Positions 23,640 through 54,982 of a stretch of DNA of 64,000 nucleotides are shown in pieces. The DNA is taken from NCBI GenBank assembly GCA_030583845.1, contig CP129478.1, positions 279,175 to 343,174 on the forward strand. Reading direction: 5' to 3'. The stretch's first letter is position 1. Each line of letters starts with the position of its first letter. Made by a program: the position numbers and the translations under genes. Source of the DNA: Candidatus Dojkabacteria bacterium (GTDB lineage Bacteria; Patescibacteriota; Dojkabacteria; SC72; JAHDCA01). Below the pieces are notes generated by a model. That model saw nothing but the letters and a program-made list of their open reading frames with translations, made no database searches and had not been told where the DNA came from.

Positions 23640-25763
23640 CTACTCATCATCACCATCTTCATCTTCCGACTTCTTCTCTGCTTTGACCTTCTTAATAAAT
23701 TTGCACTCCGGATAGCCGCTACAACCGATGAAGTTCTTGCCCCACTTGCCTCGGCGTTCGACTAGATGATGTCCAGATTCAGGACACTTCTCGTGTAGAA
23801 GCATCGGGACGATCCCCTTGCACTCTGGATAGCGCTCGCACGCCCAAAATTGCCCATATTTACCGTTCTTGAGCAGCATCTTTGCACCGCATTCTGGGCA
23901 TTTTTCTGGCTTTTTATACTTCTTAAGGTCGATGCTCTCCTCACCGCCGTCGATGCTCTTCATCCCTTTGCACTCTGGGAATTTCGAGCAGCTTAGGAAT
24001 TTTCCATACCGACCTAGCCTAATTACCATCTTTGAACCGCACTTGTCACACTTCTCGTCTGATTTGCCTAGAATGACGACGTCGTTTTTCTCAACGCTCT
24101 TGTCAGCAGCTTTGATATCCTTTACGAGAGGCTTGTACTCTTTATCGAGGAAAGGTGCATACTCGACCTTGCCTTCTGATATTAGGTCAAGCTTCTCCTC
24201 TACCTCGGCTGTATACTCGTAGTCAACTAGGCTCGCGAAGTTCTTCATCAAAAATTCATTTACTACCCTGCCGACGTCGAGCGGGTGAAGGAAACGCGCC
24301 TTCTTCTCTACATAGCCACGACTCTGAACTGTGCTGATGATGGTTGCATAGGTTGAAGGTCGACCAATTCCGTAATGCTCGAGTGCTTTGACCAAGGATG
24401 CGTCTGTGTATCTTGGCTTCGGCTTGGTAAAGTGCTGCTCAGCATCTAGCTTCTTGTTCTCCAATTTCTCTCCTTTCTGGACCTCGCTGATCTGCTGTAG
24501 CTGCTCCTCATCCTTCTCACTTGAGGCCTTCCACACCTTGCGGAAGCCATCAAAGAGCACCTTCTCACCACCCATTCTGAATTCATACTTTGCCTTTGAC
24601 TTGCCAACCACCTCACAGGTCACGGTTAGCACCTCGGTCTGCTGGTTCTTCATCTGACATGCCAATGTGCGGTCATAGATCAATTTGTACAGCTTCGCCT
24701 CCGCTGGGCCTAGATCTGCTTTCACCTGTATATCTGAAGTGTTGAAATCGGTTGGACGGATCGCCTCGTGCGCCTCTTGGGCATTTCGGCTTCGGCTCTT
24801 GTAGTAGTTTGGCTGCTCTGGGAGATATTTCTCGCCGTACTGCTCTACGATCTTGTCTCGTGCTGCATCTATCGCCTGCTGGGCGAGATTAAATGAGTCA
24901 GTTCTCATATAGGTGATGTAACCGGCCTGGTATAACGCCTGAGCCAATCCCATTGTGCGCTTGGCAGTAAATCCAAAAAGATTGTTGGCTGCCTGCTGTA
25001 GAAGCGAGGTCGAGAATGGCGGATATGGCTTCTTCGACTTGGCAGTTGTCTGCACGTCGATAACTTCTAAATCGTTTTTGCCGATATCTTTCTTGATTTT
25101 CTCTACGTCATCCTTGCTGCCAGGTATATTTTTCTTCCCATCTTTCTTGGTGAATTTCGCCTTTAGCTCGTTCTTCTTGTGCTGAACGATTGCATACAGA
25201 TCCCAATACTCATCAGGCACAAATGCCTCGATCTCCTTCTCTCTTTCAACAATTAGCCTGAGAGCTACTGATTGCACACGACCTGCGGATAGTCCGTACC
25301 AGATCTTCTTCCACACAAGCTCAGACACTTTGTATCCGACCAACCTGTCTAGAGCACGACGCGCCAGCTGTGCCTCGACGAGGTTGTCGTCGATCTTCCG
25401 CGGTGCCAATATTGCTTCGTTTACTGCCCCTTTGGTAATTTCGTAGAAAACAACACGCTGCGGCTTCTTTAATTTCAATGCTTTCGCTACATGCCATGCG
25501 ATAGCCTCCCCCTCACGATCCGGGTCCATTGCCAGAAACACTTTCTTCCCTTTAGCTGCTGTACCGAGCTTCTTGATGATGTCGGCTTTGCCTTTAATCG
25601 TGGTAAATTCAGGCTCATACTTGTTGTCAACGTCGATGCCCAGCTTGCTTTTTGGTAGGTCAATTATATGACCAACCGTGGCCATCACCTTGTAATCTTT
25701 TCCTAGATACTTGCTTATTGTCTTCGCCTTAGACGGAGACTCTACGATCACTAAGTTCTTCAT
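23640..25763 (-). CDS. topA: DNA topoisomerase I
   Basis: Toprim N-terminus LVIVESPSKAKTI, active-site Tyr region, three C-terminal C4 zinc ribbons. Confidence 0.9.
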   Translation of the reverse strand: MKNLVIVESPSKAKTISKYLGKDYKVMATVGHIIDLPKSKLGIDVDNKYEPEFTTIKGKADIIKKLGTAAKGKKVFLAMDPDREGEAIAWHVAKALKLKKPQRVVFYEITKGAVNEAILAPRKIDDNLVEAQLARRALDRLVGYKVSELVWKKIWYGLSAGRVQSVALRLIVEREKEIEAFVPDEYWDLYAIVQHKKNELKAKFTKKDGKKNIPGSKDDVEKIKKDIGKNDLEVIDVQTTAKSKKPYPPFSTSLLQQAANNLFGFTAKRTMGLAQALYQAGYITYMRTDSFNLAQQAIDAARDKIVEQYGEKYLPEQPNYYKSRSRNAQEAHEAIRPTDFNTSDIQVKADLGPAEAKLYKLIYDRTLACQMKNQQTEVLTVTCEVVGKSKAKYEFRMGGEKVLFDGFRKVWKASSEKDEEQLQQISEVQKGEKLENKKLDAEQHFTKPKPRYTDASLVKALEHYGIGRPSTYATIISTVQSRGYVEKKARFLHPLDVGRVVNEFLMKNFASLVDYEYTAEVEEKLDLISEGKVEYAPFLDKEYKPLVKDIKAADKSVEKNDVVILGKSDEKCDKCGSKMVIRLGRYGKFLSCSKFPECKGMKSIDGGEESIDLKKYKKPEKCPECGAKMLLKNGKYGQFWACERYPECKGIVPMLLHEKCPESGHHLVERRGKWGKNFIGCSGYPECKFIKKVKAEKKSEDEDGDDE

Positions 25764-34895: not shown

Positions 34896-37800
34896 TTAAG
34901 CGGTAATTTGTGTTGGAGAAACCGATTGCGGACTATCAACTCTCCTCATCACTCCACTCTCAGTACTCCCGGTCCAATTATCCTCGGGAGGCTGCAGCTT
35001 GAAATTACCCGTTATCAGATCCAATTTCTTATTAATTGTGTACTTTACCTTCCCTTTGACCACTTTATGCTCACCGTTGAATTCCAATCTGTAAATCCCG
35101 GCGAATGAGACAATCCTATACCTTCCCTGCTCGTCAGTAATCACCTTCTGAACAGTTTTATCCGTCCCCTCTTCGATTAAAGTAATCTCCACACCGGCCA
35201 ACCTATTCCCTTTAACAGACCTTACCACACCATATGTATAGCCACTCTTAAGCATGCTCTGAATGATTAAAAGGCTTACAGGTATTAGATATAGCAGGAA
35301 GAATGTGAAGTTCAACCACGATGGAGAGGTAATAAGTACAAGGCCAGAGAGCACCATGCCTAGAACTAATAGTATCCTCAAAACAATAAATAGTGCATTC
35401 ACAAAACCGCTCTGTGCGACATTTACTAATACTGTGCTCCACCCGCTCTCAGCTCTATCTAGCGGCACTGCTCTATCTACCGAGTAATCCTTTTTGTGAC
35501 TAAATACTCCACCAAGGTAAAGGCTTTGATAGATCCCATCTGTAGAGGTCTTGATCGTCCTTGCAGGGAATCGGTAGCCAGTCTTAACTGCATCGATCCT
35601 ATATCTACCATTATCAAGGTATAGGTTATACACACCGTTATATCTGGTCACATCTGTATCAACCAACCTGCCAAAATCGTCGTAAACACGTACTATCACA
35701 TTATTTAGTGGGGCTTTGTCTTGAGCATCGTAGACGATACCGAACGACTCACGTTTGCGCGATTTCAAGAAGTTCAGCAGTGCGATCCAGAACCGCAAGG
35801 CCATGCCAGGGATCTCTGGTATGAAGAGTAATATGTAGCCCGCAGAAGCGGCTGTAGCCACTCCAGAAGTTACCAGATCGTACTCTCCCTCCTCCCACTC
35901 CTCCACCACCCGTCCAGTGGTCTCAACGATAGCTTCCCCAGCCCTACCTATTATCGACTGTGGTTGCGAGGTAGTCTGCCTTCCGCTACCATTATTTGCT
36001 GGTGCGGCTGGCTCCTCTCCGTCGTCTGGTTCTGCGCCTGGTACAGGCTCAGGTTCTGGTTCGGGTTCAGGATCCTGTTCTGGTTCAGGCGGTAAAGGTT
36101 CACTATTAGATATCAGCACCGTCTCTGAATAAACCTCCGAAAGGTTACCAACGGCGTCTCTAAGCCTCACATTTATTGTTACCGAGCCAGTTGCCGTAGT
36201 CCTGTATTCAAGATTTGCTTCGTACTGCTCCCACTCAGTTTCAATAAATTCTTCGCCTTCCGATATCATAATCTCGGCAACGCCAGAACCAGTATCGATC
36301 GCAGGTATCAAAATTACTATATCTCGAATATTACTACTGCCCGAATTGTCTGTAATAAATAGTTCGCCCACAGGAGGGATAGTGTCAACTCCGAAGGCAA
36401 CCTCTCCTTCGTTTGCAGTACTATAAACGACTGGGTAAAGGGTTGGATCATAGCCACCAACGCGCCAGTAGTAAGTAGAATCACCTAGAACTTGCCCTTC
36501 GTTACCTACAGCATATGTGCCGCCTGAAGGAGCCTGACCAACGGTGAAGGTATAACTACCTTGTGCTAGTGGTGCCGATGTGAAATCAACGACAGGGGTT
36601 GAGAAATCTTCGCTGTCATCAATCTGAATTCGATACTGGACTGTGTCCGTACTGTCCTCATCAGATATAGCAAATGCAAATACAGGGGCTGTATTAACGC
36701 TAAACTCTCCATCTATTACGGCACCCTCACCAAGATCGGTCGTCACCGGAATTCCGAAGTTCCAACCAACATTATTACCTAGGTTAGACCCAGTACCAAG
36801 TAGCTGAATAGCAGTCGGACTATTATTTACGCTATCGCTAACATCCACATACTGTATATTCCTTGAACCTTGAGGATCAATGTACCAAGGCTGACCTGGA
36901 GTTACAGAGACCAAATCAATATGATTGTTTTCTGTCCCCGCAATCGTAGTCATACCTTCTACTGTTATCACACTTCCTTCTAACACCTGGAAAGTAGCGA
37001 TGTTTGGCAATACCTCAATATTATTAAACTGATAGTTTCCTGTAAGGATCGTTGCACCACCGTCGAAGATCACTGTACCGTTATTATGATTAAAAATACC
37101 ACTATTGGTTAAGTCACCTGTGACAATAAGCTCATCAGATGGTGCGGTTAATGTACCGTTATAGTTAATGACCAATTGCGAAACCGTTGAAGTAGCAGGT
37201 AGCATCAGGTGACTCGAGACTTCAACCATAACATCACTATTAAAGCTCGTTGACCCACTTAGGTCAGTAACAGTTGTAGTTGAAACAGTAAGGTTGTCAA
37301 TGTTAAGAGAGTCAAATCCTGAGAAAAAGCCACCAGGATCCTGGGATAACTCAGCTAGGTAAAGTGTATCTCCTCCCTTCGTGAGCGTTCCCGTGCCAGT
37401 CAAACTGGCACCGCCCAGGTCATACCTGTACAGATTTATTGCTCCATTTGGAAGTACTGGATCGTTACCGACTGGAAGGCTACAGTTATTTGCGATTCCT
37501 AGAATAGAGTCTAGGCCGAATGTCACATGGTTAAACACGAAGTTTTCACAGTCTATTGGCTCATATGCGGTATTATCAAAGTGGATTGTTCCATTGTTAT
37601 GATCAAATGTTGTCGTGCCAGTCACCTGCATCTGGCCACGTAATGTAGTTGTGCCGGCGGAAGCGATCAGGTTTCCGCCAGAAAAGGTGAAGTCGCCAAA
37701 AGCGGAGTTCTCAGCAAGTGTGAGTGTGCCCGAACTAAAGGTCAGAGTTCCTGCAATGTCCAAACCGCTGTATCCAGATAGGTTTAATGTTGGACCTGAG

Positions 37801-40685
37801 ACTATCATATCCTCCAGTATATATAGACTCTCAAAGCCGCTAAGAACGCCTGTGCTATTTACAGTCAAATCACCCTGAATGGTCAGATCACCACTGCCCG
37901 AGAGAGTCCCCTGCAGTGATATTGCTGCTGTGACGACTGCATCGCCCCCGAGTGGTAATGAACAGCTAGACGCTACGGTTTTCGTACTCGTGTGATTAAA
38001 GCTCACGAGATTGAAAGTTGAATTATTACAATTAATACTGCCTGAGATTCCGTCAAAGGTAAGTACCCCTCCGTTATGATTAAATGATCCAGACCCACTT
38101 ATGGTGAAAGAACCGGAGACGGACATTGTATTTGAAGATGCTGTCATACTCCCACCACTGACTGATACCGAGGTAAGATCAGCAATCGGCGGCAAGGTTA
38201 TGCTTCCAGAGCTTACTGCAACAGTAGTCGCTGCTATACCTGTCATTATCGATGTGTTAAACGTCCCACCTGCGATGGTAATAGAGTTCATCGAACCATT
38301 ACTGAAACCGCTTACCACTCCACCACTATTCACTGTGAGTATCCCCATTGCTGTAAGCGTACCACTCCCACTCACATTACCGTTGACTGTCAAACCGCCG
38401 GAGTTGTTTACCCCAACGGTGGGATTATTTCCTAATGCAATAGTGCAGGTGGAGGATATAGTCTTAACCCCTGTATTGCTAAAAATTACCTGATTAAATG
38501 ACACACTGTTACAGTTGAGTGTTGCAGTGCTGCCATCAAATATTATCGTCCCACTATTGTGGTTGAATACAGCACTACCTGAGATGGTAAGCGCGCCTGC
38601 TAAGTTAAGTGTCGAGGATGAGGCTGTAAAGGTTCCGGCGCTCATGGAAAGAGTTCCATTTATATCTGCAACTGGGGGTAAAGTTACGCTACCTGAAGTC
38701 ATAAGCAGCTGACCTGAGAGGGTCAAACTACTTATCCCGCTGAGATTCAGAGTGGCACCAGATACAGTCAAGCCGCCACCTGAGATGCTAGAGAATCCAC
38801 TAAAACTAGCGCCACTGTTGAGAGTAAATAGTGAACCAGTAGGAAAGGTCAAAGTACCAGTTCCACTTAAGGTACCTGCCACCGTTAGCCCTCCGTTTCC
38901 GAGTAGAGTTGGGTTGTTCCCAAGTGGTATTGTGCAACTTGATGAAATAGTCTTACTGCCACTATTGTTAAACGTCACAAGGTTAAACAGTTTCCCTCCG
39001 CAGGTTACTGTCCCAGAGCTACCCGTAAAGCTTACTGTACCGTTATTGTGATTAAAGGTTGAGCTAGCGTTAAAGTTTATACCTCCAGTAATAGTCATAG
39101 TCCCAGATGGGGCGGTAACATTTGCAGCTGCATTTAGGTTCAGTGTACCGAAACTCGTCCCAGACGGTGGTAACACGATTGTCCCATTAACTATTAGCGA
39201 CGAGGTGGAAACAAACGATGTGTAGCTACTAAAATCGCCGTCTACAACAATTAACGATGCTATGGCAAGTCCACTAAAGCCACTGAAAACTGAACCTGCA
39301 GAAGCAGTCATACTCCCATTGTTTTTAGTAAAAGTTCCAGTGCCACTCAAAGTACCATACAACTGGATAAATCCAGATGCTGTGGTTGTGTAATTGTTTC
39401 CTACTGGTAGGGTACAATCACTGTTGAAAGTCCGGCTTGAGCTACTTGTGATTTGCACAGTGTTGAAGGTTACATTTCCACACGCAATCACAGCTGATGA
39501 CGACCCATCAAAAATTACAATTCCACTGTTGTTATTAAATGTTGCAGCGCTGTCGATTGTTACCGCATTGCCTAGGTTCGTATTACCGGACGAGGCAGTA
39601 AAAATTGCGCCACTATTAAGCGTAACCGTACTATTTGCATCAAAGTTGAAACTGTTCGCACTATATGTACCTGCGGACTGAGTATAGGCACCATTCATAA
39701 TCAGGGCTCGTCCCTGGGTTACTACTCCGCTATACCCAGCATTAATACTTACAGCCGTTATAGTACCACCAAAAGAGCTGTCTACCGTAGAATTTTTACT
39801 GCTTGTACCATCAAATATTACTGAGTCCGCTGAGGTAGGACACACATCGGTGCTCCAGTTAGTACACTCGCTCCAGTTCTCCGTAGCTCCACCACCATCC
39901 CAGGTGTAGGTAGCCGCTTTCGCCGGAGATCTAAAAAAATTAAAAAACTCATACGAGGATAACGATACTAGAACAACCTGCGCACAGAGGAAAAGAGTGA
40001 AGGTGAGGGTGACAGCTAACGCCGGATAGGCTCGAACTCTGGATAGCCTTAGATCGTCTTTGCGCTGAGGGACATTGAGATCCTTGTCGCCCCGGGAGAT
40101 CAGAAAGTAGAGTATCGAGAGAAAGAAGGTCGTTATTACCTGGTAGAAAATCCAATTCGCTCGCAGGATAGCTTTGGAGATAGGACCGTTACCCTTCTGC
40201 GCCATGTCAGCGGACTGATTTGAGAGGTGAGCATACCTGTATGCTTGCGAAGCAATATACTTAACAAATCGGAACCATCTCGAGCCATCCTCCACTCTGC
40301 CCTCTACTAGTGAAGAGATCTCATTGATAAGCCTGTCGAGAAAATCGGAGTCGTCTTTATCCAGTACTACATAATCGCTGGGAAGATCACCCAGTTTCTG
40401 ATTTGCCGCGGTCAGTACTACCACCTTTTTTGATGACTCGTTAAGTACCTTGTTGGTTCTCACATACTCTATTATTTCTAATCCACCATACTGAGGGAGT
40501 GTCGCATCGATTACTATGATCTCTGGATGGACTACATATAGATAGCCGAGACCGTCCATGCCGTTAGAGCATGTATAGATATTTAACTTCTCCTTGCGAA
40601 ATGAGGAGTAGAGCAGGTTTTTCAGTACAAGCCGTATGACAGAATCGTCTTCTATTAATACTATATTTACGGAATCCCTTCCCAT
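34896..40685 (-). CDS. Giant 1929-aa protein: N-terminal CheY-like receiver domain, TM segments, about 1300-aa tandem beta-helix-like repeat region, Pro/Glu linker, further TM segments and two PEGA/CarboxypepD_reg-like domains
   Basis: REC residues in place (IEDD, VIDATLP, VVLTAAN, LDKDD). TM candidates ILRANWIFYQVITTFFLSILYFLI and AYPALAVTLTFTLFLCAQVVLVSL. Six or more repeats of about 150 aa around FNHNNGT[VI]xFDG…C…N…C…LP[LV]GN. EPEPEPEPEP linker. Later TM helices and domains such as VRVYDDFGRLV…GVYNLYL…GRYRIDAVKTGYRF and GVEITLIEEGTDKTVQKVITDEQGRYRI. Confidence 0.6.
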   Translation of the reverse strand: MGRDSVNIVLIEDDSVIRLVLKNLLYSSFRKEKLNIYTCSNGMDGLGYLYVVHPEIIVIDATLPQYGGLEIIEYVRTNKVLNESSKKVVVLTAANQKLGDLPSDYVVLDKDDSDFLDRLINEISSLVEGRVEDGSRWFRFVKYIASQAYRYAHLSNQSADMAQKGNGPISKAILRANWIFYQVITTFFLSILYFLISRGDKDLNVPQRKDDLRLSRVRAYPALAVTLTFTLFLCAQVVLVSLSSYEFFNFFRSPAKAATYTWDGGGATENWSECTNWSTDVCPTSADSVIFDGTSSKNSTVDSSFGGTITAVSINAGYSGVVTQGRALIMNGAYTQSAGTYSANSFNFDANSTVTLNSGAIFTASSGNTNLGNAVTIDSAATFNNNSGIVIFDGSSSAVIACGNVTFNTVQITSSSSRTFNSDCTLPVGNNYTTTASGFIQLYGTLSGTGTFTKNNGSMTASAGSVFSGFSGLAIASLIVVDGDFSSYTSFVSTSSLIVNGTIVLPPSGTSFGTLNLNAAANVTAPSGTMTITGGINFNASSTFNHNNGTVSFTGSSGTVTCGGKLFNLVTFNNSGSKTISSSCTIPLGNNPTLLGNGGLTVAGTLSGTGTLTFPTGSLFTLNSGASFSGFSSISGGGLTVSGATLNLSGISSLTLSGQLLMTSGSVTLPPVADINGTLSMSAGTFTASSSTLNLAGALTISGSAVFNHNSGTIIFDGSTATLNCNSVSFNQVIFSNTGVKTISSTCTIALGNNPTVGVNNSGGLTVNGNVSGSGTLTAMGILTVNSGGVVSGFSNGSMNSITIAGGTFNTSIMTGIAATTVAVSSGSITLPPIADLTSVSVSGGSMTASSNTMSVSGSFTISGSGSFNHNGGVLTFDGISGSINCNNSTFNLVSFNHTSTKTVASSCSLPLGGDAVVTAAISLQGTLSGSGDLTIQGDLTVNSTGVLSGFESLYILEDMIVSGPTLNLSGYSGLDIAGTLTFSSGTLTLAENSAFGDFTFSGGNLIASAGTTTLRGQMQVTGTTTFDHNNGTIHFDNTAYEPIDCENFVFNHVTFGLDSILGIANNCSLPVGNDPVLPNGAINLYRYDLGGASLTGTGTLTKGGDTLYLAELSQDPGGFFSGFDSLNIDNLTVSTTTVTDLSGSTSFNSDVMVEVSSHLMLPATSTVSQLVINYNGTLTAPSDELIVTGDLTNSGIFNHNNGTVIFDGGATILTGNYQFNNIEVLPNIATFQVLEGSVITVEGMTTIAGTENNHIDLVSVTPGQPWYIDPQGSRNIQYVDVSDSVNNSPTAIQLLGTGSNLGNNVGWNFGIPVTTDLGEGAVIDGEFSVNTAPVFAFAISDEDSTDTVQYRIQIDDSEDFSTPVVDFTSAPLAQGSYTFTVGQAPSGGTYAVGNEGQVLGDSTYYWRVGGYDPTLYPVVYSTANEGEVAFGVDTIPPVGELFITDNSGSSNIRDIVILIPAIDTGSGVAEIMISEGEEFIETEWEQYEANLEYRTTATGSVTINVRLRDAVGNLSEVYSETVLISNSEPLPPEPEQDPEPEPEPEPVPGAEPDDGEEPAAPANNGSGRQTTSQPQSIIGRAGEAIVETTGRVVEEWEEGEYDLVTSGVATAASAGYILLFIPEIPGMALRFWIALLNFLKSRKRESFGIVYDAQDKAPLNNVIVRVYDDFGRLVDTDVTRYNGVYNLYLDNGRYRIDAVKTGYRFPARTIKTSTDGIYQSLYLGGVFSHKKDYSVDRAVPLDRAESGWSTVLVNVAQSGFVNALFIVLRILLVLGMVLSGLVLITSPSWLNFTFFLLYLIPVSLLIIQSMLKSGYTYGVVRSVKGNRLAGVEITLIEEGTDKTVQKVITDEQGRYRIVSFAGIYRLEFNGEHKVVKGKVKYTINKKLDLITGNFKLQPPEDNWTGSTESGVMRRVDSPQSVSPTQITA

Positions 40686-44826: not shown

Positions 44827-45486
44827 ATGATGGATTTCACACAGTGGGTTACAGACATTGGAATGACAGAGCAGATGCTACTTATGCTGCTCTATATTCC
44901 TGTGATCGTCACTCTTATTAACTTCACCAGGTATGTGGTTGGATTTAAGACTTTGGGAATCTATGCCCCAATGGTTCTAGCATATGCCTATATCTTCACC
45001 GGGATACGTTTCGGTTTACTTATCACCGCTGCGGTAATCGCTGGAACTCTCATCACCTACTCTATCTTCAAGAAGGTGAGAATGCACTATATCTCCAGAA
45101 TCTCTGTCAACTATATATTGGTAACCTTTTTCATTATCTTCGTGATTGCTTTTAATGAAATTTCGCCATTCCCCATCACTACTGAGAACCATAACGTTGC
45201 TACAATTCCACCACTTGGTGTGATCTTGATCGTAACTCTTTCTGACTTCTTCATTAAACAGTATGTTAAGAAGGACCTGGGTAGCTCACTTAGAGCTGTG
45301 GCCGAGACTGTAGTCATCGGTATTGCTGGCTGGGCACTCCTAAGACTCCCATTTCTACAGGTATTTATCCTAGATAACCTATGGCTGCAGCCGATCCTCT
45401 TAGGGGTAAATATTGCACTTGGTAAATATACAGGGGTAAGATTTAAAGAGCTCTTCAGATTTCAACGGGTTATTAAAGACGAGTAA
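44827..45486 (+). CDS. Seven-TM integral membrane protein (no catalytic motif), first gene of the ATP-grasp locus
   Basis: 219 aa with about seven hydrophobic helices. Its position immediately upstream of a RimK-like ATP-grasp mirrors the 7TM partner of RLAN-type amidoligase systems (family assignment unverified). Confidence 0.5.
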   Translation: MMDFTQWVTDIGMTEQMLLMLLYIPVIVTLINFTRYVVGFKTLGIYAPMVLAYAYIFTGIRFGLLITAAVIAGTLITYSIFKKVRMHYISRISVNYILVTFFIIFVIAFNEISPFPITTENHNVATIPPLGVILIVTLSDFFIKQYVKKDLGSSLRAVAETVVIGIAGWALLRLPFLQVFILDNLWLQPILLGVNIALGKYTGVRFKELFRFQRVIKDE

Positions 45487-45536: not shown

Positions 45537-46997
45537 ATGATAGCCACAGCCATTTTTGGGCAGAAAGAAAAAGAGGTGTTGGGGATCAACAGGCGCAACC
45601 AGAACTATATCCGTGCCTTCAATCCCCCATCAGCTCGTGGTAAGGCCGACAACAAGCTCACGACCAAGAAGATTCTCAATCAGGTTGGCATCAAGACACC
45701 TGAACTGTACAAAGTAATCCGCAGCAAGCAGCAGCTCAAATTCTTCGACTGGAACTCATTGCCCAAGAGCTACGTCATCAAGCCAAACCGCGGCTCTCAA
45801 GGAAGCGGCATCATAGTCTTCTACGGCCAGAAGAAGAATAGCCTCGAATGGATCCGACCGAGCGGCCAGACCATGGATCCACACGAGATCTCCCTGCACA
45901 TGGAGAAGATTCTGGACGGCCGTCTATCTATGGGTAACCGCAAAGATATTGTGATAATAGAGGATAGAATTCGAACCCATAGTGAATTGAAGCGCTACTC
46001 ATACAAGGGTGTTCCCGACATTCGCCTCATCGTCTTCAACAGAGTGCCTATCATGGCCATGGTACGCCTGCCCACCCGTCGCTCCGACGGTAAAGCCAAC
46101 CTACACGCTGGTGCGATCTGTGCTGGTATCGACATAGCATCAGGCGTCACTACAAATGCAATGCACCTTCGCAAGCAGCCGCTGATTGAGGACACATATG
46201 AAGACCTCGAATTTACCCTAGACCAGAATCCTCCCCTACCCCTGAGAGGTATCAAGATCCCATTTTGGGAAGAGATCCTACAGATAGCAGTAAAATGCCA
46301 AGAGGTTAGCGGCCTAGGCTATCTAGGCGTCGACATCGTAATCGACCAAGAGCATGGCCCAATGGTGCTTGAGCTGAACGCACGTCCCGGGCTAGGCATC
46401 CAGACAGCAAACAAGACAGGTCTACGGGCTCGATTAGAGCGAGTCGCTGGGCTGCAAATCAAGAGCAATAAGCATGGAATCCGCGTGGCTAAGAGCCTAT
46501 TCGGTGGTGAGGTCGAGGAAGAGATCGAGGTGATCAGCGGTAAGCGGGTAGTCAATCTTGTAGAGAAGGTAAATGTATACCACTCCGAGCATGCAGACAA
46601 GAAGGAGCTGGTGAGTGCAATGTTGGACACAGGAATTACTACATCTCGAATCGACGAGGGGCTCGCCTCTCGGCTTGGTTTCACAGACGCTCTGAAAAGC
46701 TTTTCCGAGCATAAACCACCCCGTGAGTTCGGTAGTTTCACAGAAGCCCAACAGTACATAGATGCCCATGAGGAAGAGATTACCTCACACCCACAGATTT
46801 TACGTCTCGCTAAGATATCAGAAGATGGCAAAATCAATGTAAAGCCTGTTATTAGCCTTGAAATCAAGGTCGCAGGTGAAAGACGCGCGATGGACTTTGT
46901 TGTAAGCACTCAAAGTGATATGCTCTATCCAGTGCTGATCGGTCGCGCAGAGCTGAAGAGCTACCTGATAGACGCCAGCAAGACCTTCACACGCTAA
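45537..46997 (+). CDS. RimK-like ATP-grasp amidoligase with N-terminal INRRN region and C-terminal retropepsin-like (PF05618-type) peptidase domain
   Basis: N-terminal GINRRNQNYI (the motif of alpha-L-glutamate-ligase-related proteins). Central ATP-grasp elements (…IIEDRI…RLIVFNRVPIMAMVRLP…DGKANLHAGA…LGVDIVID…VLELNARPG). C-terminal …MDFVVSTQSDMLYPVLIGRAELKSYLIDASKTF matches the LLGRraL…VDps signature of the ATP-dependent-zinc-protease/retropepsin-like family. Confidence 0.6.
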   Translation: MIATAIFGQKEKEVLGINRRNQNYIRAFNPPSARGKADNKLTTKKILNQVGIKTPELYKVIRSKQQLKFFDWNSLPKSYVIKPNRGSQGSGIIVFYGQKKNSLEWIRPSGQTMDPHEISLHMEKILDGRLSMGNRKDIVIIEDRIRTHSELKRYSYKGVPDIRLIVFNRVPIMAMVRLPTRRSDGKANLHAGAICAGIDIASGVTTNAMHLRKQPLIEDTYEDLEFTLDQNPPLPLRGIKIPFWEEILQIAVKCQEVSGLGYLGVDIVIDQEHGPMVLELNARPGLGIQTANKTGLRARLERVAGLQIKSNKHGIRVAKSLFGGEVEEEIEVISGKRVVNLVEKVNVYHSEHADKKELVSAMLDTGITTSRIDEGLASRLGFTDALKSFSEHKPPREFGSFTEAQQYIDAHEEEITSHPQILRLAKISEDGKINVKPVISLEIKVAGERRAMDFVVSTQSDMLYPVLIGRAELKSYLIDASKTFTR

Positions 46998-47016: not shown

Positions 47017-48006
47017 ATGAGCCAGTACAATATGGATCCCAAATATCTAGAGCAAGGCGGCAATGTCCACCTCGCTTACTATCTAGAAGCAGCCGACCAG
47101 CTTGGCATCAAATATGATGTCATCATCCGCTCGCTCACAGCCCGCATGGAGAAAGATGGGAAGATCTGGTTTATGATGAACGCCTCGGTTCCTATTAACG
47201 GCGAGCCCAGCTCTACACTATCCCGCATCAAGAGCTATACATACAAAGTTTTCCAGCACGCTGGTATCCCAGTGGCTGAGCAGGCTGAGTTATTCAGTGA
47301 GCAAGATGCATTAGGATTCTTCAACCAGTATAAGAATATCGTCATAAAGCCTGTCCGCAATATCGGAGGCACCGGCATCACTATCCTGCCACAAAGCGAA
47401 GATGAGGTGCGTCAGGCATATGTCCTCGCCCGCGACAAGAATATGGCAAGCACAAAGGTCGAGGCTTTGGCCGAACGATTCGCTATCGGCTCTAATTATA
47501 GACTGTTAGTACTTGGTGATGAGGTAATTGGTGCCGTACATAGAAGGCCAGCCCATGTCACAGGTGATGGAGTCTCGACAGTTGCACAGCTGGTCGAAGC
47601 AAAAAATGCAGCACGCAAGGCAGAGCTGATGAAACCGATCAAGCTTGATGCCCAGAGCATGCTGAAGCTGAGGTCCAACGGATTTACCGAGGGCTATGTG
47701 CCTCAAGCGGGCGAAGAGGTCGAGCTGAGATTCAACTCGAATCTCTCAACTGGAGGCACGACTGAGGAGTGCATGTCGAGAATTCACCCTAGCTATCTGG
47801 ATCTAGCCATACGCGCTACTAAGGAGCTCGGCTTAAAACTAGGCGGCGTAGATCTGATTGCCGAGGATGTGACCACTCCTGGTGCTGCTGCAGTTATTAA
47901 CGAGATAAACACAAATCCAGGGCTAAGGGTGCATTATAAGGTGGATAAGGGCGAGGTTGTGCCAGTTGCTACGAAGATTCTCTCCTACATAGTGGCCAAT
48001 ATATAG
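47017..48006 (+). CDS. Cyanophycin-synthetase-like ATP-grasp domain protein (short, 329 aa)
   Basis: …IVIKPVRNIGGTGITIL…NYRLLVLGDEVIGAVHRRPAHVTGDGVSTVAQLVEAKN…STGGT…GVDLI… resembles the CphA central ATP-grasp block. Confidence 0.6.
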   Translation: MSQYNMDPKYLEQGGNVHLAYYLEAADQLGIKYDVIIRSLTARMEKDGKIWFMMNASVPINGEPSSTLSRIKSYTYKVFQHAGIPVAEQAELFSEQDALGFFNQYKNIVIKPVRNIGGTGITILPQSEDEVRQAYVLARDKNMASTKVEALAERFAIGSNYRLLVLGDEVIGAVHRRPAHVTGDGVSTVAQLVEAKNAARKAELMKPIKLDAQSMLKLRSNGFTEGYVPQAGEEVELRFNSNLSTGGTTEECMSRIHPSYLDLAIRATKELGLKLGGVDLIAEDVTTPGAAAVINEINTNPGLRVHYKVDKGEVVPVATKILSYIVANI

Positions 48007-48028
48007 TTTGAGCTCACAGAAGGGATCC

Positions 48029-48223
48029 TTAGCGTACCCAGAGCTGCCACACTACTACTGAGCTGAGGACTGCAATAACTGCAATTAGCATGAACACAAG
48101 GTATGTATTTGCCCTCATAAGCCTTCGTGATTTAGCGAGCTGGAGCTTCTGGTTTACAGTGCTACCACTCTTCTTTGCAGTTGTAATCTTCATCTCTTTT
48201 GCCATATCGCCAGTATACCACAA
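48029..48223 (-). CDS. Small hypothetical tail-anchored membrane protein (doubtful)
   Basis: 64-aa ORF with a C-terminal hydrophobic helix YLVFMLIAVIAVLSSVVVWQLW. It overlaps the glyQS promoter region. Confidence 0.2.
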   Translation of the reverse strand: MWYTGDMAKEMKITTAKKSGSTVNQKLQLAKSRRLMRANTYLVFMLIAVIAVLSSVVVWQLWVR

Positions 48224-48226
48224 GCA

Positions 48227-48557
48227 AAAGCGAAATTTGCATTGCCTGCCTGCTTAGAGCTATAATACCAGCAGAAAGAGATCTTTGAAGCAAACACAGA
48301 GAGTCGACCCAAGGCATGAATTGCCGGATTTGAGAGGTTGGCGAGCTTACAAATTGGCACTCTTTTCGCTTGAGAAAGCAGCGTGATAAAAGAATATCGA
48401 GAGATTATCGCAGCTTATATGGCGCGGTAATAATGCGGGTGGAACCGCGGTAGTACATTTTTGAAATATACCGTCCCGCTAACTTATAGTCCATAGCCTC
48501 GGCGACGGAGTATAAGTTAGCGGGACGGTTTTTATTTATATATAATCATTTAAGAAT
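48227..48557 (+). promoter_or_regulatory. glyQS T-box riboswitch leader: promoter TTGCAT-18-TATAAT (48227-48256), AGAGA and GGC specifier region, T-box sequence AATGCGGGTGGAACCGCGG (48432-48450), terminator hairpin (48470-48529) plus U-tract (48530-48540)
   Basis: Seen directly: 17/19 match to the AAUUAGGGUGGNACCGCGG consensus, with UGGA (N=A, matching the tRNA-Gly discriminator U). Antiterminator pairing GCGGG/CCCGC and CGGUA/UACCG around a UGGAACC bulge. The terminator is a REP-family hairpin followed by TTTTTATTTAT immediately before the glyQS start. Confidence 0.7.
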
Positions 48558-48575
48558 ATGGAAAAAGAGAAAAGC

Positions 48576-49973
48576 ATGACAATAGAGACGCTTGCGGCAT
48601 TTGCAAAAAGGCGCGGCTTCGTATTTCAATCATCAGAGATCTATGGTGGATTTGCCGCTGTATACGACTACGCACATTACGGTGCGCTTATGCGCGAGAA
48701 TATCAAGCAGGCGTGGGTCAAAGAGATGATCCGCCGAGATGATGTGAAGCTTCTCGATTCAGCAGTATTTATGCACCCAACCACCTGGAAGGCCAGCGGA
48801 CATGTTGATTCATTCGCCGATCCTGAGATCGATTGCAAAAGCTGTAAGAACCGATTTAAAGCCGACCACCTCTTGGAGCCACTTGGATATACCGATGTCG
48901 ACCGCATGGAGATTTCAGAAGCAAACAAGATCGTAGAGCAGGTCAAAGCAGAAGGGAAATTGAAGTGTCCAGTATGCGGAGGCAAAGATCTCACAGATAT
49001 TAAGCGATTTGACCTGCTGGTTAAATCAAACTTAGGCTCCCCTACTTCAGAGCTTTCAGAAGAGAATGTTGTCTACCTACGAGGTGAGACCTGCCAAGGT
49101 ATCTATCTCAACTATAAGAATTACCTGCAGAATATGCGGGTGAAGGTTCCGTTTGGTATAGCTCAGGTTGGTAAAGCTTTCCGAAACGAGGTGGTCGCAC
49201 GACAGTACACTTTCCGTATGCGCGAATTTGAACAGTGCGAGATGCAATATTTCGTTCACCCAACTGACGAGCAGCCGAAATATGACTATTGGAAAAAGGA
49301 GCGAATGAGGTGGTGGAAAGAGGAGTTGGGCGTGCCTGCAGAGATGCTTAGATTTAAAGATCACGAAAAGCTTGCCCACTACGCGAAAGCAGCATGTGAT
49401 GTAGAGTACGACTTCAATGTACTTGGGAAATTTGCCGAGGTTGAGGGTATCCATCAGCGAGGTGATTGGGATCTCTCACAGCATCAGAAATTCTCAGGCG
49501 AGAATCTCGAGTATTTCGACCAGGATAAGAACGAAAAGTATATCCCACACATAGTAGAGACTTCGGGTGGACTCGACCGAATGTTCCTTGCCGTACTCGA
49601 TAGCGGCTATACAGAAGAGACGCTTGAAGATGGTAGCGAAAGAGTTGTGTTGAAGGTGAAGCCATCATTGGCACCAATAAAGGTGGCAGTATTCCCACTT
49701 ATCAAGAAGCCCGAGCTCACAAAATTGGCTAAAGATATCTATCAATACTTGCTTTCACAGCACATGGTCGAATATGATGAAACAGGATCAATCGGTAAGC
49801 GATATAGAAGACAGGATGAGATCGGTACACCTTTCTGCATCACTGTCGACTTCGAATCACTCGAGGACAACATGGTGACATTGCGCAACAGAGATACGCT
49901 AGAGCAGGAAAGGATCAAGATCGACGATATGCCACAGATTATTAACTCAAGGTTGTATCCGGAGAAGGCTTAA
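48576..49973 (+). CDS. glyQS: Glycyl-tRNA synthetase (single-chain alpha2 type)
   Basis: Class II motifs (…FRNE…, …GGLDR…) and N-terminal …FVFQSSEIYGG…. An alternative ATG lies at 48558. Confidence 0.9.
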   Translation: MTIETLAAFAKRRGFVFQSSEIYGGFAAVYDYAHYGALMRENIKQAWVKEMIRRDDVKLLDSAVFMHPTTWKASGHVDSFADPEIDCKSCKNRFKADHLLEPLGYTDVDRMEISEANKIVEQVKAEGKLKCPVCGGKDLTDIKRFDLLVKSNLGSPTSELSEENVVYLRGETCQGIYLNYKNYLQNMRVKVPFGIAQVGKAFRNEVVARQYTFRMREFEQCEMQYFVHPTDEQPKYDYWKKERMRWWKEELGVPAEMLRFKDHEKLAHYAKAACDVEYDFNVLGKFAEVEGIHQRGDWDLSQHQKFSGENLEYFDQDKNEKYIPHIVETSGGLDRMFLAVLDSGYTEETLEDGSERVVLKVKPSLAPIKVAVFPLIKKPELTKLAKDIYQYLLSQHMVEYDETGSIGKRYRRQDEIGTPFCITVDFESLEDNMVTLRNRDTLEQERIKIDDMPQIINSRLYPEKA

Positions 49974-51701: not shown

Positions 51702-52661
51702 ATGCAGATGCGATACCTATACATAGAAAAGCCCCAAAGAGTCAAAATGTCCGGTGAATACCCGAAGCGTGCTATACGCATAATGGAGGAGCTTGAGAAG
51801 GCCGGTCTTCCTTATGATTTCGCATACAACGATCAGATATCAATTTCATTAAATAAAAGCGAGCTCCAGATTAAAGTTAATGGAAAAGATGTTAGAGAGT
51901 ACACACATATTATCTTTGGTGGTCACCACCTCCATAGCCAACGAGATTACGAGATAAAGAGACTGATCGTCGACGTTGTCGATGAGCATAACCAGGATAG
52001 CGGTAACTCAGAGCCCATAAGAGTTCAGAACTCTCGATTCATTAAACGAATGACATTCTACTCAAAGCTGCACATGGCAAAGATCTGCGCAGACTATGGC
52101 CTACCGTTCCTCGCAACATATTACGACCGCTCGGGTAAGTATCAGCAGTCCAACCTACCCTTCCCCTACCCTCTGATTGCAAAACATGTCGATGGTCGCA
52201 ATGATCTGGTGATGATCGACGGTGAGAAGAAAGTTAAAAAGAATGTATACAAGCTTGATAATGAGAACGGTTGGAAGCAGGACAGGCTGGCCACCAAGAG
52301 CCCAGCGCTCTTCTTCATACAGGAATTCGCCGACTCAGGAGAAGATTTCCGATATTTTGTATCCAAGGGCGAAGTGATAGGAGGCTGGAAGCGTGTCGCG
52401 GGCGACAGCTTTATGACCGTGAACCGCAAAGAGGGTGCCAGATATTTCTATGCCAACGAGCCAGACAAGAAGATTCGAGATATCTGTAAAGCCGCCGCGG
52501 ATGGCTGGGGAGTCGACTTTATGGCATTGGACTTCATGTATAAGGATGGTGAGCCTCACATTTTGGAGTTCAGCATGAACCCTGGCTTCGATGCCTATGA
52601 GAAGAAGTGCGAAGATGGCGAGCCAACAAATATCGCCGAGGCGATCGTTAAATCTTTTTAA
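51702..52661 (+). CDS. RimK-like ATP-grasp ligase (alpha-L-glutamate ligase family)
   Basis: …FFIQEFADSGEDFRYFVSKGEVIGGWKRV…MALDFMYKDGEPHILEFSMNPGF… parallels RimK (…DIRCFVVGD.VVAAMKR…EVNSSPGL). Confidence 0.6.
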   Translation: MQMRYLYIEKPQRVKMSGEYPKRAIRIMEELEKAGLPYDFAYNDQISISLNKSELQIKVNGKDVREYTHIIFGGHHLHSQRDYEIKRLIVDVVDEHNQDSGNSEPIRVQNSRFIKRMTFYSKLHMAKICADYGLPFLATYYDRSGKYQQSNLPFPYPLIAKHVDGRNDLVMIDGEKKVKKNVYKLDNENGWKQDRLATKSPALFFIQEFADSGEDFRYFVSKGEVIGGWKRVAGDSFMTVNRKEGARYFYANEPDKKIRDICKAAADGWGVDFMALDFMYKDGEPHILEFSMNPGFDAYEKKCEDGEPTNIAEAIVKSF

Positions 52662-52709
52662 TGAAATTCAGATAAGCCTGCGAGGTGTCTAGGTGACTAC
52701 AGGATGCGA

Positions 52710-53870
52710 TTATAGCCCTGCTACCTTGAAAGCATCATCAAACATCTTCTTGCTGTAAACAAGCTTTGGCTTAGGGATGAGCCCTTCATCCACCCACTTT
52801 ATCTGGCTAAATCCGATCTTGCCAGCATATAGCTTCTCATAGATTGTAGGATCCTTCTCTACTTTATTCCTGACCCTTCTAAAGCCTTTAAAGTAGTTAT
52901 AGTCCCGCGAGTATATACCCGGCATATTTGTATCCCCTAGCCCACGCTTGACTCGATATACGATGTGGAATGCCTCGATCCTAGGAGCAAAAGCCTGTGT
53001 AGCATTATAAAGCTCACGGAACGACATCTGCTCACCAACCCGGATAGCCCACACCTTGACTGCTCGGCCTACCAGATCTTTCTTCTTCAATACGCCAACC
53101 ATCTCCTCATTATATGTAGCTAATCCCTCCTCTGCCTCAAGATATGAAGGGAGGTTTGAATTTGCCAAGGCAGGCACTTTAGTCTGCTCTCCATTATAGG
53201 CCCTGGCTATATGCGTGAATTCATGCACAATTGTCTTCCGTAGATCTACGGCACTCTTCTCAATCTCTGGATCCATCAATATCTCCTTCTTCTTGATACC
53301 AACCTTCACCCCGTTCTTGTCGATGTTCTTTGACTTGCCTGCTTTCCAATCACTCAGTCCAAGCTCCTCAAGGACGATTGCCATAGTTTCTGCAATCTCT
53401 TCGTACCTCAGCTTTCTCTCAACTTTCTTACTCCCCTCATCCATCAGTTTGTAATTTTTCACCTTGCCCCGTAGCACTCTTGTGGCATTCCTAAAAAGGA
53501 TATCGCCAGGCATTCCAAATCTCTCCTGCGAGAGTCTTGTGAATCTAAAATTCTGGCCGACTGAATGTAGAAGCTCATTGAGCTGGTGCTTCGAATCGAT
53601 CAGTTCTAGGTAGAATTCTGAAATTCGAGGATCTACATCGGTGACAACTTTTACACTACTCAGCTTTGCTAAGATGTCGGCATTTTTATTTTTTACAACT
53701 GTATAAGTGAAAAGCGGGTTGTAGCTGCTGGACTCAAAGAATCTCTTGCGCTCTTCTTTTAGGTTGGTTGGGGTGAACACTAGGGATGTAGGGGCGCGGA
53801 ATTCTTGCAGCAGCTCTGTTAGTTCCTTGAGCTTAATTTCGCTCTTTCCTTTTTTGGCGAATATCGTCAT
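52710..53870 (-). CDS. DUF1704 / QEGLA-motif zincin-like protein
   Basis: HExxH IVHEFTHI and EEGLATY (QEGLA-like) motifs. The ORF's first 23 codons (to 53939) run through the 25-bp palindrome, so the ATG at 53870 is preferred. Confidence 0.5.
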   Translation of the reverse strand: MTIFAKKGKSEIKLKELTELLQEFRAPTSLVFTPTNLKEERKRFFESSSYNPLFTYTVVKNKNADILAKLSSVKVVTDVDPRISEFYLELIDSKHQLNELLHSVGQNFRFTRLSQERFGMPGDILFRNATRVLRGKVKNYKLMDEGSKKVERKLRYEEIAETMAIVLEELGLSDWKAGKSKNIDKNGVKVGIKKKEILMDPEIEKSAVDLRKTIVHEFTHIARAYNGEQTKVPALANSNLPSYLEAEEGLATYNEEMVGVLKKKDLVGRAVKVWAIRVGEQMSFRELYNATQAFAPRIEAFHIVYRVKRGLGDTNMPGIYSRDYNYFKGFRRVRNKVEKDPTIYEKLYAGKIGFSQIKWVDEGLIPKPKLVYSKKMFDDAFKVAGL

Positions 53871-53920: not shown

Positions 53921-53945
53921 TAACCAAGGGAAGTCGCACTTTGCA
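53921..53945. repeat. 25-bp palindrome copy 3 between the mreB-paralogue stop and the DUF1704 gene start
   Basis: Seen directly. Confidence 0.9.
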
Positions 53946-53971
53946 AGTGCGACTTGGTTCGCGCTTCGCGC

Positions 53972-54982
53972 TTATTCTTTCGCGATGCTAGTCACGCCTG
54001 CTGCGAGCAGCTCCAAGGCTGCACCAGTACCCTTTGCCACACAGTACATCGGCTCATCAGCAACGTATGCAGGCACGCCGGTCGCCTTCGTGAATAGCTT
54101 GTCCAGATTCCGAAGCATTGCTGTACCCCCACTCATCGCCATGCCACGATCAATAATATCGGCCGATAGTTCAGGCGGTGTCTTTTCTAACACAGACTTG
54201 ATAGCCTGAATAATTTGCGCCAGCGGCACTCGCAAAGCCTCTGCGACCTCATTCGAATTTATCTCCATCGAGCGAGGCATTCCGCCTGCTGCATCACGAC
54301 CACGAATCTCCATCGATTGTGGATTCTCCACCTTCATCGCTGAGCCAATCTTAATCTTGATCATCTCGGCTGTTTGCTCACCAACCAGCAACCCATGTCG
54401 CTTACGCAGGTATGACACAATAGCATCATTAAGCGCATCTCCTGCGACACGCAAGGATGAGTACTCTACAATTCCACGGAGCGAGATCACGGCAATTTCA
54501 GAGGTACCACCACCCATATTTACGATCATGCTTCCGGTCGAGGTCTCAATTGGCAAGCCGGCGCCAATCGCTGCGAGCAACGGCTCGGGCACCAGATAGA
54601 TCTTACGGGCTCCAGCAGCCGTAGCCGCCTTGAGCACAGCACGCTTCTCTACAGAGGTGATTCCGGCAGGCACGCTAATCATCACATCCGGTTTGAAAAA
54701 TCGAGAAGGACCTCCAAGTGCTTTGTTGAAGAAATACTTAAGCAGAGCTTCGGTCACGCGTGAGTCTGCAATAACACCGCTTCGCATTGGCCTGCGAGCT
54801 ACGATGTCATCGGGAGTCTTGCCGATCATCTCCTTTGCCTCCATCCCTACGGCTAGGACCGACATATTGTTTACATCAAGGGCGACAACTGTGGGCTCTG
54901 TTAGCACCACACCCTTGCCCTCGAGAAATACTATTGAATTGGCTGTTCCTAGGTCGATGCCTAGCTTCTTTCCTCCTATCAT
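53972..54982 (-). CDS. MreB/Mbl-like actin homologue (second copy)
   Basis: LGIDLGTANSIVF…, NMGGGTSE… actin-fold motifs. About 50% identical by eye to the mreB at 30478..31527. Confidence 0.8.
   Translation of the reverse strand: MIGGKKLGIDLGTANSIVFLEGKGVVLTEPTVVALDVNNMSVLAVGMEAKEMIGKTPDDIVARRPMRSGVIADSRVTEALLKYFFNKALGGPSRFFKPDVMISVPAGITSVEKRAVLKAATAAGARKIYLVPEPLLAAIGAGLPIETSTGSMIVNMGGGTSEIAVISLRGIVEYSSLRVAGDALNDAIVSYLRKRHGLLVGEQTAEMIKIKIGSAMKVENPQSMEIRGRDAAGGMPRSMEINSNEVAEALRVPLAQIIQAIKSVLEKTPPELSADIIDRGMAMSGGTAMLRNLDKLFTKATGVPAYVADEPMYCVAKGTGAALELLAAGVTSIAKE

Follow-up and report, generated by a model that had tools for sequence, protein, structure and literature searches.

Genes at the locus

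We analyzed a stretch of 64,000 nucleotides (hereafter, the window) from Candidatus Dojkabacteria (WS6), a lineage of the Patescibacteria or candidate phyla radiation (CPR) with a tiny genome, and focused on two convergent genes and on the cluster of ligase genes that they border. One of the two encodes a RimK-like protein of the ATP-grasp fold and the other a relative of the human peptidase MATCAP. An earlier note on this DNA had described the pair as two convergent open reading frames (ORFs), and both were confirmed, with an intergenic gap of 48 bp. The two genes and the motifs of the putative metal site are the following:

51702..52661, + strand: diverged ATP-grasp protein of the RimK/LysX/ArgX type, 319 amino acids (317 amino acids from the ATG at 51708); PF08443, Foldseek and hhalign
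52710..53870, - strand: predicted zinc metallopeptidase of the MATCAP/DUF1704 family, 386 amino acids; PF08014, family profile and AlphaFold (AF2) model
53211..53225, - strand: HEFTH, putative metal-binding/catalytic motif of the HExxH form; translation and alignment
53124..53132, - strand: EEG, putative third metal ligand, within AEEGLAT (53115-53135); corresponds to the EEG of human MATCAP/TMCP1

Two features support a long start for the RimK-like gene (51702 or 51708), namely the N-terminal sequence MKYLIIDKRQRV, which is conserved in homologs, and an AAGGA just 5' of this start; the 304-amino-acid call of NCBI for this gene is probably too short. The ATG at 53870 is the true start of the MATCAP-like gene because the homologs are 384-389 amino acids long. 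We rejected a GTG start at 53939, which would yield an ORF of 409 amino acids, based on these homolog lengths and because it would cross a perfect hairpin located downstream of mreB. Homolog N-termini and lengths, together with the AAGGA, thus indicate that the start codons proposed in the earlier note are the best ones for both genes. The hairpin has a perfect 11-bp stem (53925-53949) and lies between mreB (53972-54982, - strand) and the MATCAP-like gene. A scan for promoters and terminators returned the same counts as in shuffled sequence.

Family and fold of the peptidase

The 386-amino-acid protein matches PF08014 (93.2 bits relative to a cut-off of 27; residues 66-392), a family formerly known as DUF1704 and renamed MATCAP in Pfam, for microtubule-associated tyrosine carboxypeptidase. 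A profile of the family based on 48 diverse homologs (22-55% identity) matched human MATCAP (PDB 7Z5G; E 1.9e-36), and the profile alignment places 'vHEigtH' over 'RHEIGTH' and 'teEGLA' over 'TEEGLA' of the human enzyme. The AlphaFold model of the protein presents a predicted local distance difference test (pLDDT) score of 90.5. Searching this model with Foldseek returned human MATCAP (7Z5G and 7Z6S) as the sole strong match in the PDB (E 1e-10 to 7e-10; template modeling (TM) score 0.6-0.69), the next match having an E of 0.05. The protein is basic (isoelectric point 9.6; net charge +18) and its N-terminus presents no visible signal peptide (by inspection only, as no signal-peptide predictor was run), from which it appears to be cytoplasmic. 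The earlier note had also given the protein the QEGLA label, which we did not retain. The protein belongs to the same superfamily as TIGR02421, the proteobacterial DUF1704 model named "flavohemoglobin expression-modulating QEGLA motif protein", and aligns to it over residues 55-394 (model positions 18-351), but it scores 107.1 bits relative to an equivalog cut-off of 338.65 and its motif reads EEGLA. This score and this motif indicate that the MATCAP-like protein represents another subfamily.

We further analyzed the putative metal site. Across the 48 homologs, His216, Glu217, and His220 are invariant, as is Gly249, and Glu248 is at least 90% conserved; the latter two residues align to the TEEGLA of 7Z5G. 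The EEG motif has been described for human MATCAP/TMCP1, which also presents the HExxxH motif that was used to identify the enzyme (PMC10499314). We compared the spacing of the first motif across several sets of homologs, including two biased samples that are used throughout: 80 species-representative loci of Dojkabacteria, taken from genome contigs through a Dojkabacteria-level alignment, and 80 diverse metagenomic loci with 591 kb of flanking sequence, obtained with a small alignment that started from a protein of Elusimicrobiota. The counts were as follows:

149 representatives (50% identity clusters): HExxxH in 135, HExxH in 2, plus 1 with both
120 close homologs: HExxxH in 103, HExxH in 17
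80 Dojkabacteria species loci: HExxxH in 76, HExxH in 4
80 diverse metagenomic loci: HExxxH in 76, HExxH in 3

Judging from these sequences, the hallmark of PF08014 is HExxxH, not HExxH. The alignment reveals a one-residue deletion in the window protein and its nearest relatives, which turned HEVGTH into HEF-TH. The four Dojkabacteria species loci with HExxH (L009, L046, L066, and L084) all present the type of MreB C-terminus found in the window, and a single deletion in one sub-lineage would be the simplest account of the HExxH form. The zinc site that the earlier note had proposed, consisting of HExxH and EEGLA, was therefore only partly upheld: both motifs are present and their His/Glu/His and EEG residues are conserved, but HExxH is confined to a sub-clade of a family whose motif is HExxxH. 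The note had also considered that its proposal would fail if HExxH were not conserved in homologs; the spacing is indeed not conserved, whereas the His/Glu/His residues themselves are. This natural switch between HExxxH and HExxH inside one orthologous group provides a test case for the spacing tolerance of the zincin metal site.

A diverged ATP-grasp protein beside the peptidase

The C-terminal half of the 319-amino-acid protein matches PF08443 (RimK) with 24.9 bits relative to a cut-off of 21. Taken with the PF08014 match of its neighbor, this agrees, at the level of the Pfam hidden Markov models, with the families given in the earlier note, RimK-like ATP-grasp and DUF1704. Other models of the RimK type remained below their cut-offs (TIGR00768, 39.4 bits relative to 143.4; MptN model). 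The AlphaFold model, based on 37 homologs, presents a pLDDT of 90.4 and Foldseek matched it over its full length to ArgX, LysX, and RimK (E ~1e-13; TM 0.68-0.74 over ~305 columns), which confirms the three-domain ATP-grasp fold of the RimK/LysX/ArgX type. These three proteins are ATP-grasp ligases that modify the C-termini of proteins or peptides.

The profile of the RimK-like family aligned to E. coli RimK with a probability of 90% using hhalign (the sequence used is 100% identical to PDB 5ZCT). In E. coli RimK numbering, the family has kept K100, K141, the QEY hinge, the DIR and the Arg that follows it, D248, and E260. However, the full catalytic set of RimK is not found: 33 of the 37 family members have Ser in place of Asn in the ExN motif (N262), FMTV is conserved where RimK has FRSN, and little of the Gly-rich loop is left, in degenerate form. 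In the three remaining ATP-grasp members of the cluster, ExN is kept. Both lysines, the QEF hinge, DxR, and the Asp and Glu ligands are invariant, which suggests selection for the binding of ATP-Mg, and the RimK-like protein probably still binds ATP-Mg. All 108 named homologs of this protein come from Dojkabacteria/WS6, and the family was seen only in Dojkabacteria-type sequences.

Conservation of the cluster in Dojkabacteria

Five further genes lie directly upstream of the RimK-like gene on the same strand:

44827..45486, + strand: seven-transmembrane (7TM) membrane protein corresponding to the C-terminal half of RloB, without the inactive transglutaminase domain; PF14402, 62.4 bits
45537..46997, + strand: RloC-like ATP-grasp ligase (ATPgrasp_ST, alpha-L-glutamate-ligase-like) with a C-terminal RimB/RloA-like retropepsin; PF14397, 232.5 bits
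47011..48006, + strand: cyanophycin-synthetase-G-like ATP-grasp ligase of 331 amino acids (Cph331); NF010623, 199.2 bits; PDB CphA1 7LGN, E 2.6e-35; ExN intact (EIN)
48558..49973, + strand: glycyl-tRNA synthetase (GlyRS), a housekeeping insertion outside the system; Pfam tRNA-synt_2b and HGTP_anticodon
49985..51694, + strand: cyanophycin-synthetase-G-like ATP-grasp ligase of 569 amino acids (Cph569); NF010623, 236.9 bits over CphA 185-567; PDB CphA1 7WAC, E 5.9e-41

Two groups of genes usually converge in Dojkabacteria: mreB and the MATCAP gene lie on one strand, and the RimK-like, Cph569, Cph331, ligase-retropepsin, and 7TM genes, in this order, on the other. Of the 71 loci with enough flanking sequence, 68 have a RimK-like gene that is convergent with the MATCAP gene and downstream of it, and in 59 of these 71 loci it lies less than 500 bp away (median gap 13 bp). 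Because it is shared by 68 of 71 loci, this arrangement cannot be attributed to chance. The five genes of the ligase strand, from RimK-like to 7TM, were all present in 46 of the 49 loci whose flanks reach 7.5 kb or more, and in 39 of the 49 they were all present within a span of less than 7.2 kb. The two Cph-like genes are contiguous in most of the 80 loci, and relatives of the window (L001-L003 and L009) were the only ones with GlyRS inside the cluster. Since it is confined to close relatives, GlyRS represents a lineage-specific insertion and not a module boundary. The HExxH deletion is also found in this GlyRS-bearing sub-lineage, as is a MreB C-terminus of a distinct type.

The mreB gene is located directly upstream of the MATCAP gene and is co-directional with it in 78 of the 80 loci. 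Beyond these loci, we observed mreB next to the MATCAP gene in L007 alone, whose cluster is laid out in the same way, and in none of the other contexts that we examined. One Dojkabacteria locus, L023, has retained mreB and the MATCAP gene with zero ligase genes within 8.3 kb.

Among the upstream proteins, the 7TM protein matches the RloB model NF052267 at positions 310-508 of 508 only (58.5 bits relative to a cut-off of 900). The ligase-retropepsin protein scores just under the cut-off of TIGR02291 (282.1 bits relative to 314.2), and its retropepsin domain gave weak matches to PF05618 and RloA3 over residues 397-486 (RloA3, 33 bits relative to 210). The DTG of the retropepsin is intact at 46626-46634 (+ strand; translation MLDTGITT), and the fusion of ligase and retropepsin is kept across Dojkabacteria. 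The 569-amino-acid Cph-like protein presents an additional N-terminal region and a C-terminal stub. Over residues ~450-569, its alignment to CphA continues from the G domain to the first part of the M (Mur-ligase-like) domain, where the protein ends after ~100 residues. By eye, its 'IVAIGLGL' falls at what we take to be the P-loop position of CphA1, in which case the stub would be a degenerate M domain.

The 550-bp gap at 48006-48558 contains only short and unconvincing ORFs, no tRNA, and no credible gene for a precursor peptide. The PADLOC scan of four cluster proteins (MATCAP-like, RimK-like, ligase-retropepsin, and 7TM) returned zero matches to anti-phage defense systems. Elsewhere in the window, at 34896-40685 (- strand), an ORF of 1929 amino acids presents only a weak N-terminal match to response-regulator receiver domains and weak prealbumin-like/SpaA-type matches near its C-terminus.

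MATCAP and ATP-grasp genes in other lineages

Using our query set, ATP-grasp ORFs were detected in 22 of the 80 metagenomic loci and in all 22 they adjoin the MATCAP gene (<300 bp) or are fused to it. With the same query set, we found no ATP-grasp ORF away from the MATCAP gene in the 591 kb of flanking sequence. Fusions of ATPgrasp_ST and MATCAP account for seven of the 10 long representatives of the family, one of which is annotated as Gracilibacteria. In the genomes that encode them, these fusions are preceded by a PKD-7TM_transglut gene and, in L088, four further ATP-grasp genes come after. The L088 fusion contains a shortened retropepsin segment in which ETG replaces DTG, and to which a MATCAP domain is appended. 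That the retropepsin is degenerate where the MATCAP domain was added suggests that the two peptidases serve one system. Proteins of this triple architecture (ATPgrasp_ST, shortened retropepsin-like remnant, and MATCAP) were observed in CPR-like genomes at L088:8001-10355 and L089:4990-7377, and also in L102 and L109. In L163, three co-directional genes encode, in order, a 7TM protein, an ATPgrasp_ST ligase with a retropepsin, and MATCAP. The fusions and this three-gene form suggest that the RloC-like ligase and the 7TM protein are the primary partners of MATCAP at least as much as the RimK-like protein.

Other ATP-grasp families were found beside MATCAP as well. A canonical RimK gene follows the MATCAP gene in L004, a locus inferred to be archaeal from its neighboring genes, and RimK-type genes adjoin it in the metagenomic loci L115 and L167. 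The RimK-type ligase of L115 (L115:7049-7900, on a contig of 1.1 Mb) also matches the tubulin-tyrosine-ligase family PF03133 (21.6 bits relative to 20.1), although it matches RimK far better (82 bits). An ATP-grasp_3 gene follows the MATCAP gene in one Elusimicrobiota genome and in 17 metagenomic loci. In L090:4230-8147 and L103:6001-10113, among others, a conserved operon consists of MATCAP, a 469-amino-acid ATP-grasp_3 protein, and a protein of ~488-530 amino acids without Pfam match; this third gene was detected in 13 of these loci. Finally, in P0367/P0407 (Bacteroidales/Porphyromonas; 1275 amino acids), MATCAP constitutes the C-terminal module of a DUF4062-NB-ARC-TPR protein (STAND NTPase) whose N-terminus matches the PADLOC candidate defense family PDC-S60, and MATCAP may therefore act as an effector of conflict systems in some bacteria.

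The earlier note had interpreted the convergent pair as a second ligase/peptidase module at this locus. Our results do not support this partition: the RimK-like and MATCAP genes form the end of one conserved cluster, and elsewhere MATCAP is fused to, or follows, the very RloC-like ligase of the supposed first module.

A probable trimming peptidase in a proposed multi-ligase system

With the family and fold of the protein, the conservation of its catalytic residues and of the cluster, and the fusion or adjacency of MATCAP and ATP-grasp domains in several lineages, we consider it fairly probable that the MATCAP-like protein is a cytoplasmic carboxypeptidase, dependent on zinc or another divalent metal, that acts as the trimming "eraser" of a single multi-ligase system. 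With seven parts in all, this system would comprise the 7TM protein, the RloC-like ligase fused to the retropepsin, the two Cph-G-like ligases, the RimK/LysX-like protein, and the MATCAP-like peptidase. Up to four ATP-grasp ligases would build or extend a peptide or a C-terminal tail, probably acidic, in a ribosome-independent and ATP-consuming manner. The fused retropepsin would be the endopeptidase that makes internal cuts in the ligase product and the MATCAP-like enzyme the exopeptidase that removes C-terminal residues, such that both peptidases together could set the length or the turnover of the product. We infer the carboxypeptidase activity, the acidic peptide substrate, and this division of labor among the cluster proteins from characterized systems. 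Human MATCAP and TMCP1/2 act as metallocarboxypeptidases on the acidic tails of tubulin, from which they take C-terminal Tyr and Glu, and they undo polyglutamylation (PMC10499314). The poly-Glu tails that RimK makes are shortened by RimB retropepsins (PMC11957791). In Pseudomonas, the loss of the RloA protease is rescued by the deletion of rloB or rloC (PMC12239564), which indicates that RloA proteases counteract the product of a membrane protein and a ligase.

We searched for the acceptor of such a tail among the nearby proteins. MreB is unsupported as a substrate: its C-termini are variable and non-acidic across the 80 Dojkabacteria loci, and its gene adjoins MATCAP outside of Dojkabacteria in a single locus. 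It is eye-catching that an actin homolog stands beside a homolog of a tubulin-tail peptidase, yet the MreB C-termini do not have the character of such tails. The 7TM protein and the other cluster proteins present no conserved acidic C-terminus either, and most 7TM proteins end in Lys. Elsewhere in the window, Topoisomerase I (23640-25763, - strand) ends in a strongly acidic tail (...KKSEDEDGDDE) and represents the sole ORF of at least 70 amino acids with at least five Asp/Glu in its last eight residues; it lies 27 kb from the cluster and presents no link to the ligases.

Several observations weigh against a trimming role of the peptidase in one multi-ligase system. The C-termini of the cluster proteins and of MreB offer no conserved acidic acceptor. 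The HExxH spacing of the window protein is unlike that of the characterized enzyme, human MATCAP. The RimK-like protein, lacking the ExN Asn, FRSN, and most of the Gly-rich loop, may be inactive as a ligase. The convergent orientation means that the peptidase is transcribed apart from the ligases, and a hairpin lies between mreB and the MATCAP gene. In addition, the synteny of the cluster in Dojkabacteria is weak evidence on its own because synteny across the class extends over the entire stretch from rplJ-rplL to trpS. Outside of this class, four archaeal loci (two annotated as Woesearchaeota and two archaeal by their neighbors) have no ATP-grasp neighbor, and of the 39 metagenomic loci flanked by at least 1.2 kb on either side, only 14 have a ligase neighbor. 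Because these archaeal loci and ~60% of the diverse metagenomic loci are without such a neighbor, the MATCAP family must also work in other contexts. The recurrent presence of DUF1704 beside ligases, which the earlier note had put forward, was thus observed in the 22 metagenomic loci where the two are adjacent or fused but it is not universal. We did not find the association of DUF1704 with RimK as prior knowledge in the literature that we searched: queries on DUF1704, QEGLA, TIGR02421, and prokaryotic MATCAP returned nothing relevant, and Iyer et al. 2009, the likely source of the neighborhood predictions, lay outside this search.

Alternatively, the RimK-like and MATCAP-like proteins could form a self-contained writer/eraser module of two genes, independent of the RloC-like/retropepsin module, in which the peptidase removes exactly the residues added by the RimK-like protein. 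The immediate convergence of the two genes (68 of 71 loci; median gap 13 bp), the RimK-type genes directly beside MATCAP in archaeal L004, L115, and L167, and the fold shared with the C-terminus-modifying RimK, LysX, and ArgX are in line with such a module. However, the RimK-like protein of Dojkabacteria is not orthologous to the other RimK neighbors (no BLAST match at 1e-3) and lacks the ExN Asn and FRSN, the five ligase and membrane genes stay together in nearly all loci, and the strongest Rosetta-stone evidence favors ATPgrasp_ST and 7TM over RimK as the partners of MATCAP, all of which makes a two-gene module unlikely. A related question is whether the RimK-like protein is an enzyme at all: it could be a catalytically dead ATP-grasp pseudo-enzyme that binds the substrate as an adaptor or has a regulatory role, handing the tail to the MATCAP-like peptidase, for example. 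The replacement of the ExN Asn, the change from FRSN to FMTV, and the degenerate Gly-rich loop point in this direction, all the more since ExN is intact in the cluster's three other ATP-grasp proteins, but the invariance of both ATP lysines, the QEF hinge, DxR, and the Asp and Glu ligands is typical of selection for ATP-Mg binding. We therefore view a dead enzyme as doubtful, while leaving it some weight; it is compatible with a trimming peptidase in a multi-ligase system and would refine one component of it.

The adjacency could also be meaningless, with the peptidase being a general or unrelated enzyme (e.g., one linked to mreB) whose gene order is frozen in a reduced genome. Consistent with frozen order, synteny extends across the class from the ribosomal proteins L10/L7-L12 through the cluster to MreB and the tryptophanyl-tRNA synthetase, MreB directly precedes MATCAP in nearly all loci, L023 has kept these two genes without the ligases, and several archaeal homologs are without a ligase neighbor. 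This explanation nevertheless seems quite improbable relative to the evidence from unrelated lineages, where MATCAP is fused or adjacent to at least four ATP-grasp families and no ATP-grasp ORF was detected away from it in the 591 kb of metagenomic flanks; furthermore, the C-termini of MreB are variable and non-acidic and its adjacency was seen only in the Dojkabacteria loci and L007.

Comparison with known systems

Three bacterial systems resemble parts of the cluster. In its upstream part, the cluster follows the three-part logic of RloABC of Pseudomonas aeruginosa (PMC12239564), with a 7TM_transglut protein, an ATPgrasp_ST/TIGR02291-type ligase, and a retropepsin-like peptidase. In contrast to RloABC, the 7TM protein of the window has no inactive transglutaminase domain and the retropepsin is fused to a cytoplasmic ligase, whereas RloA is secreted with a signal peptide; the window adds three ATP-grasp proteins and a MATCAP-type metallopeptidase, and every score lies under the NCBIfam Rlo cut-offs. 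The RimK-RimB system of ribosomal protein S6 and its hybrids (PMC11957791; PDB 4IWX and 5ZCT) likewise couple the extension of a C-terminus by an ATP-grasp ligase to the removal of the added residues by a peptidase, and ligase-retropepsin fusions are found in both. RimK shares its fold and ATP-site residues with the RimK-like protein of the window, which however lacks the ExN Asn and FRSN (TIGR00768, 39 relative to 143) and whose partner is of the metallo-carboxypeptidase type rather than an aspartic endopeptidase. The RimB-RimK hybrids (PMC11957791) are analogous to the fusion of the window, except that the latter uses a RloC-type ligase beside a 7TM protein without transglutaminase.

The third system is cyanophycin synthesis. 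The 331- and 569-amino-acid proteins match the G (ATP-grasp) domain of CphA1/CphA2 (PDB 7LG5, 7WAC, and 7TA5; E 1e-35 to 1e-41), but they score ~200-237 bits relative to 850-877, they are two separate G-like proteins, and Pfam did not detect the Mur-ligase-like M domain in these window proteins. The G domain of CphA extends the peptide backbone at its C-terminal carboxylate. On sequence grounds, the locus would represent an enlarged ligase-peptidase cassette of the Rlo/Rim type with four ligases and two peptidases, including a MATCAP-type eraser. Such a cassette would provide a testable function for a widespread DUF family and extend RloABC/RimBK-type systems to a larger assembly in CPR.

The closest counterpart of the peptidase itself is eukaryotic. 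Human MATCAP/TMCP1 (KIAA0895L) and TMCP2 (KIAA0895) share with it the PF08014 family, the fold, and the aligned His-Glu...His and EEG residues; the role of MATCAP as a tubulin detyrosinase has become known only recently, its structures were released in 2022, and TMCP1/2 were described in 2023 (PMC10499314). Human MATCAP and the window peptidase differ in their motifs (HExxxH relative to HExxH) and share 15-18% identity, and the window comes from a prokaryote, with no tubulin gene seen in it and no microtubule-binding context. Each of the two is partnered in its own organism with ATP-grasp ligases that modify C-termini, namely the tubulin tyrosine ligase (TTL) and TTL-like (TTLL) enzymes in eukaryotes. 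Judging from this locus and its relatives, prokaryotic homologs of MATCAP are repeatedly tied, through fusion or adjacency, to the class of enzymes that in eukaryotes writes the marks that MATCAP erases. One could speculate that prokaryotes possessed an ancestral "C-terminal tail code", with ATP-grasp writers (RloC-, RimK-, and CphA-G-like) and MATCAP/retropepsin erasers arranged around a 7TM protein, that the TTL/TTLL-MATCAP machinery of tubulin descended from such a cassette, and that in Dojkabacteria four successive ligases write, and the peptidases trim, a tail on a protein or an envelope component. We regard this full scenario as rather unlikely, but a prokaryotic root for the writer/eraser pair of the tubulin code would be plausible, and the parallel between this cluster and the eukaryotic TTL/TTLL-MATCAP pair is suggestive.

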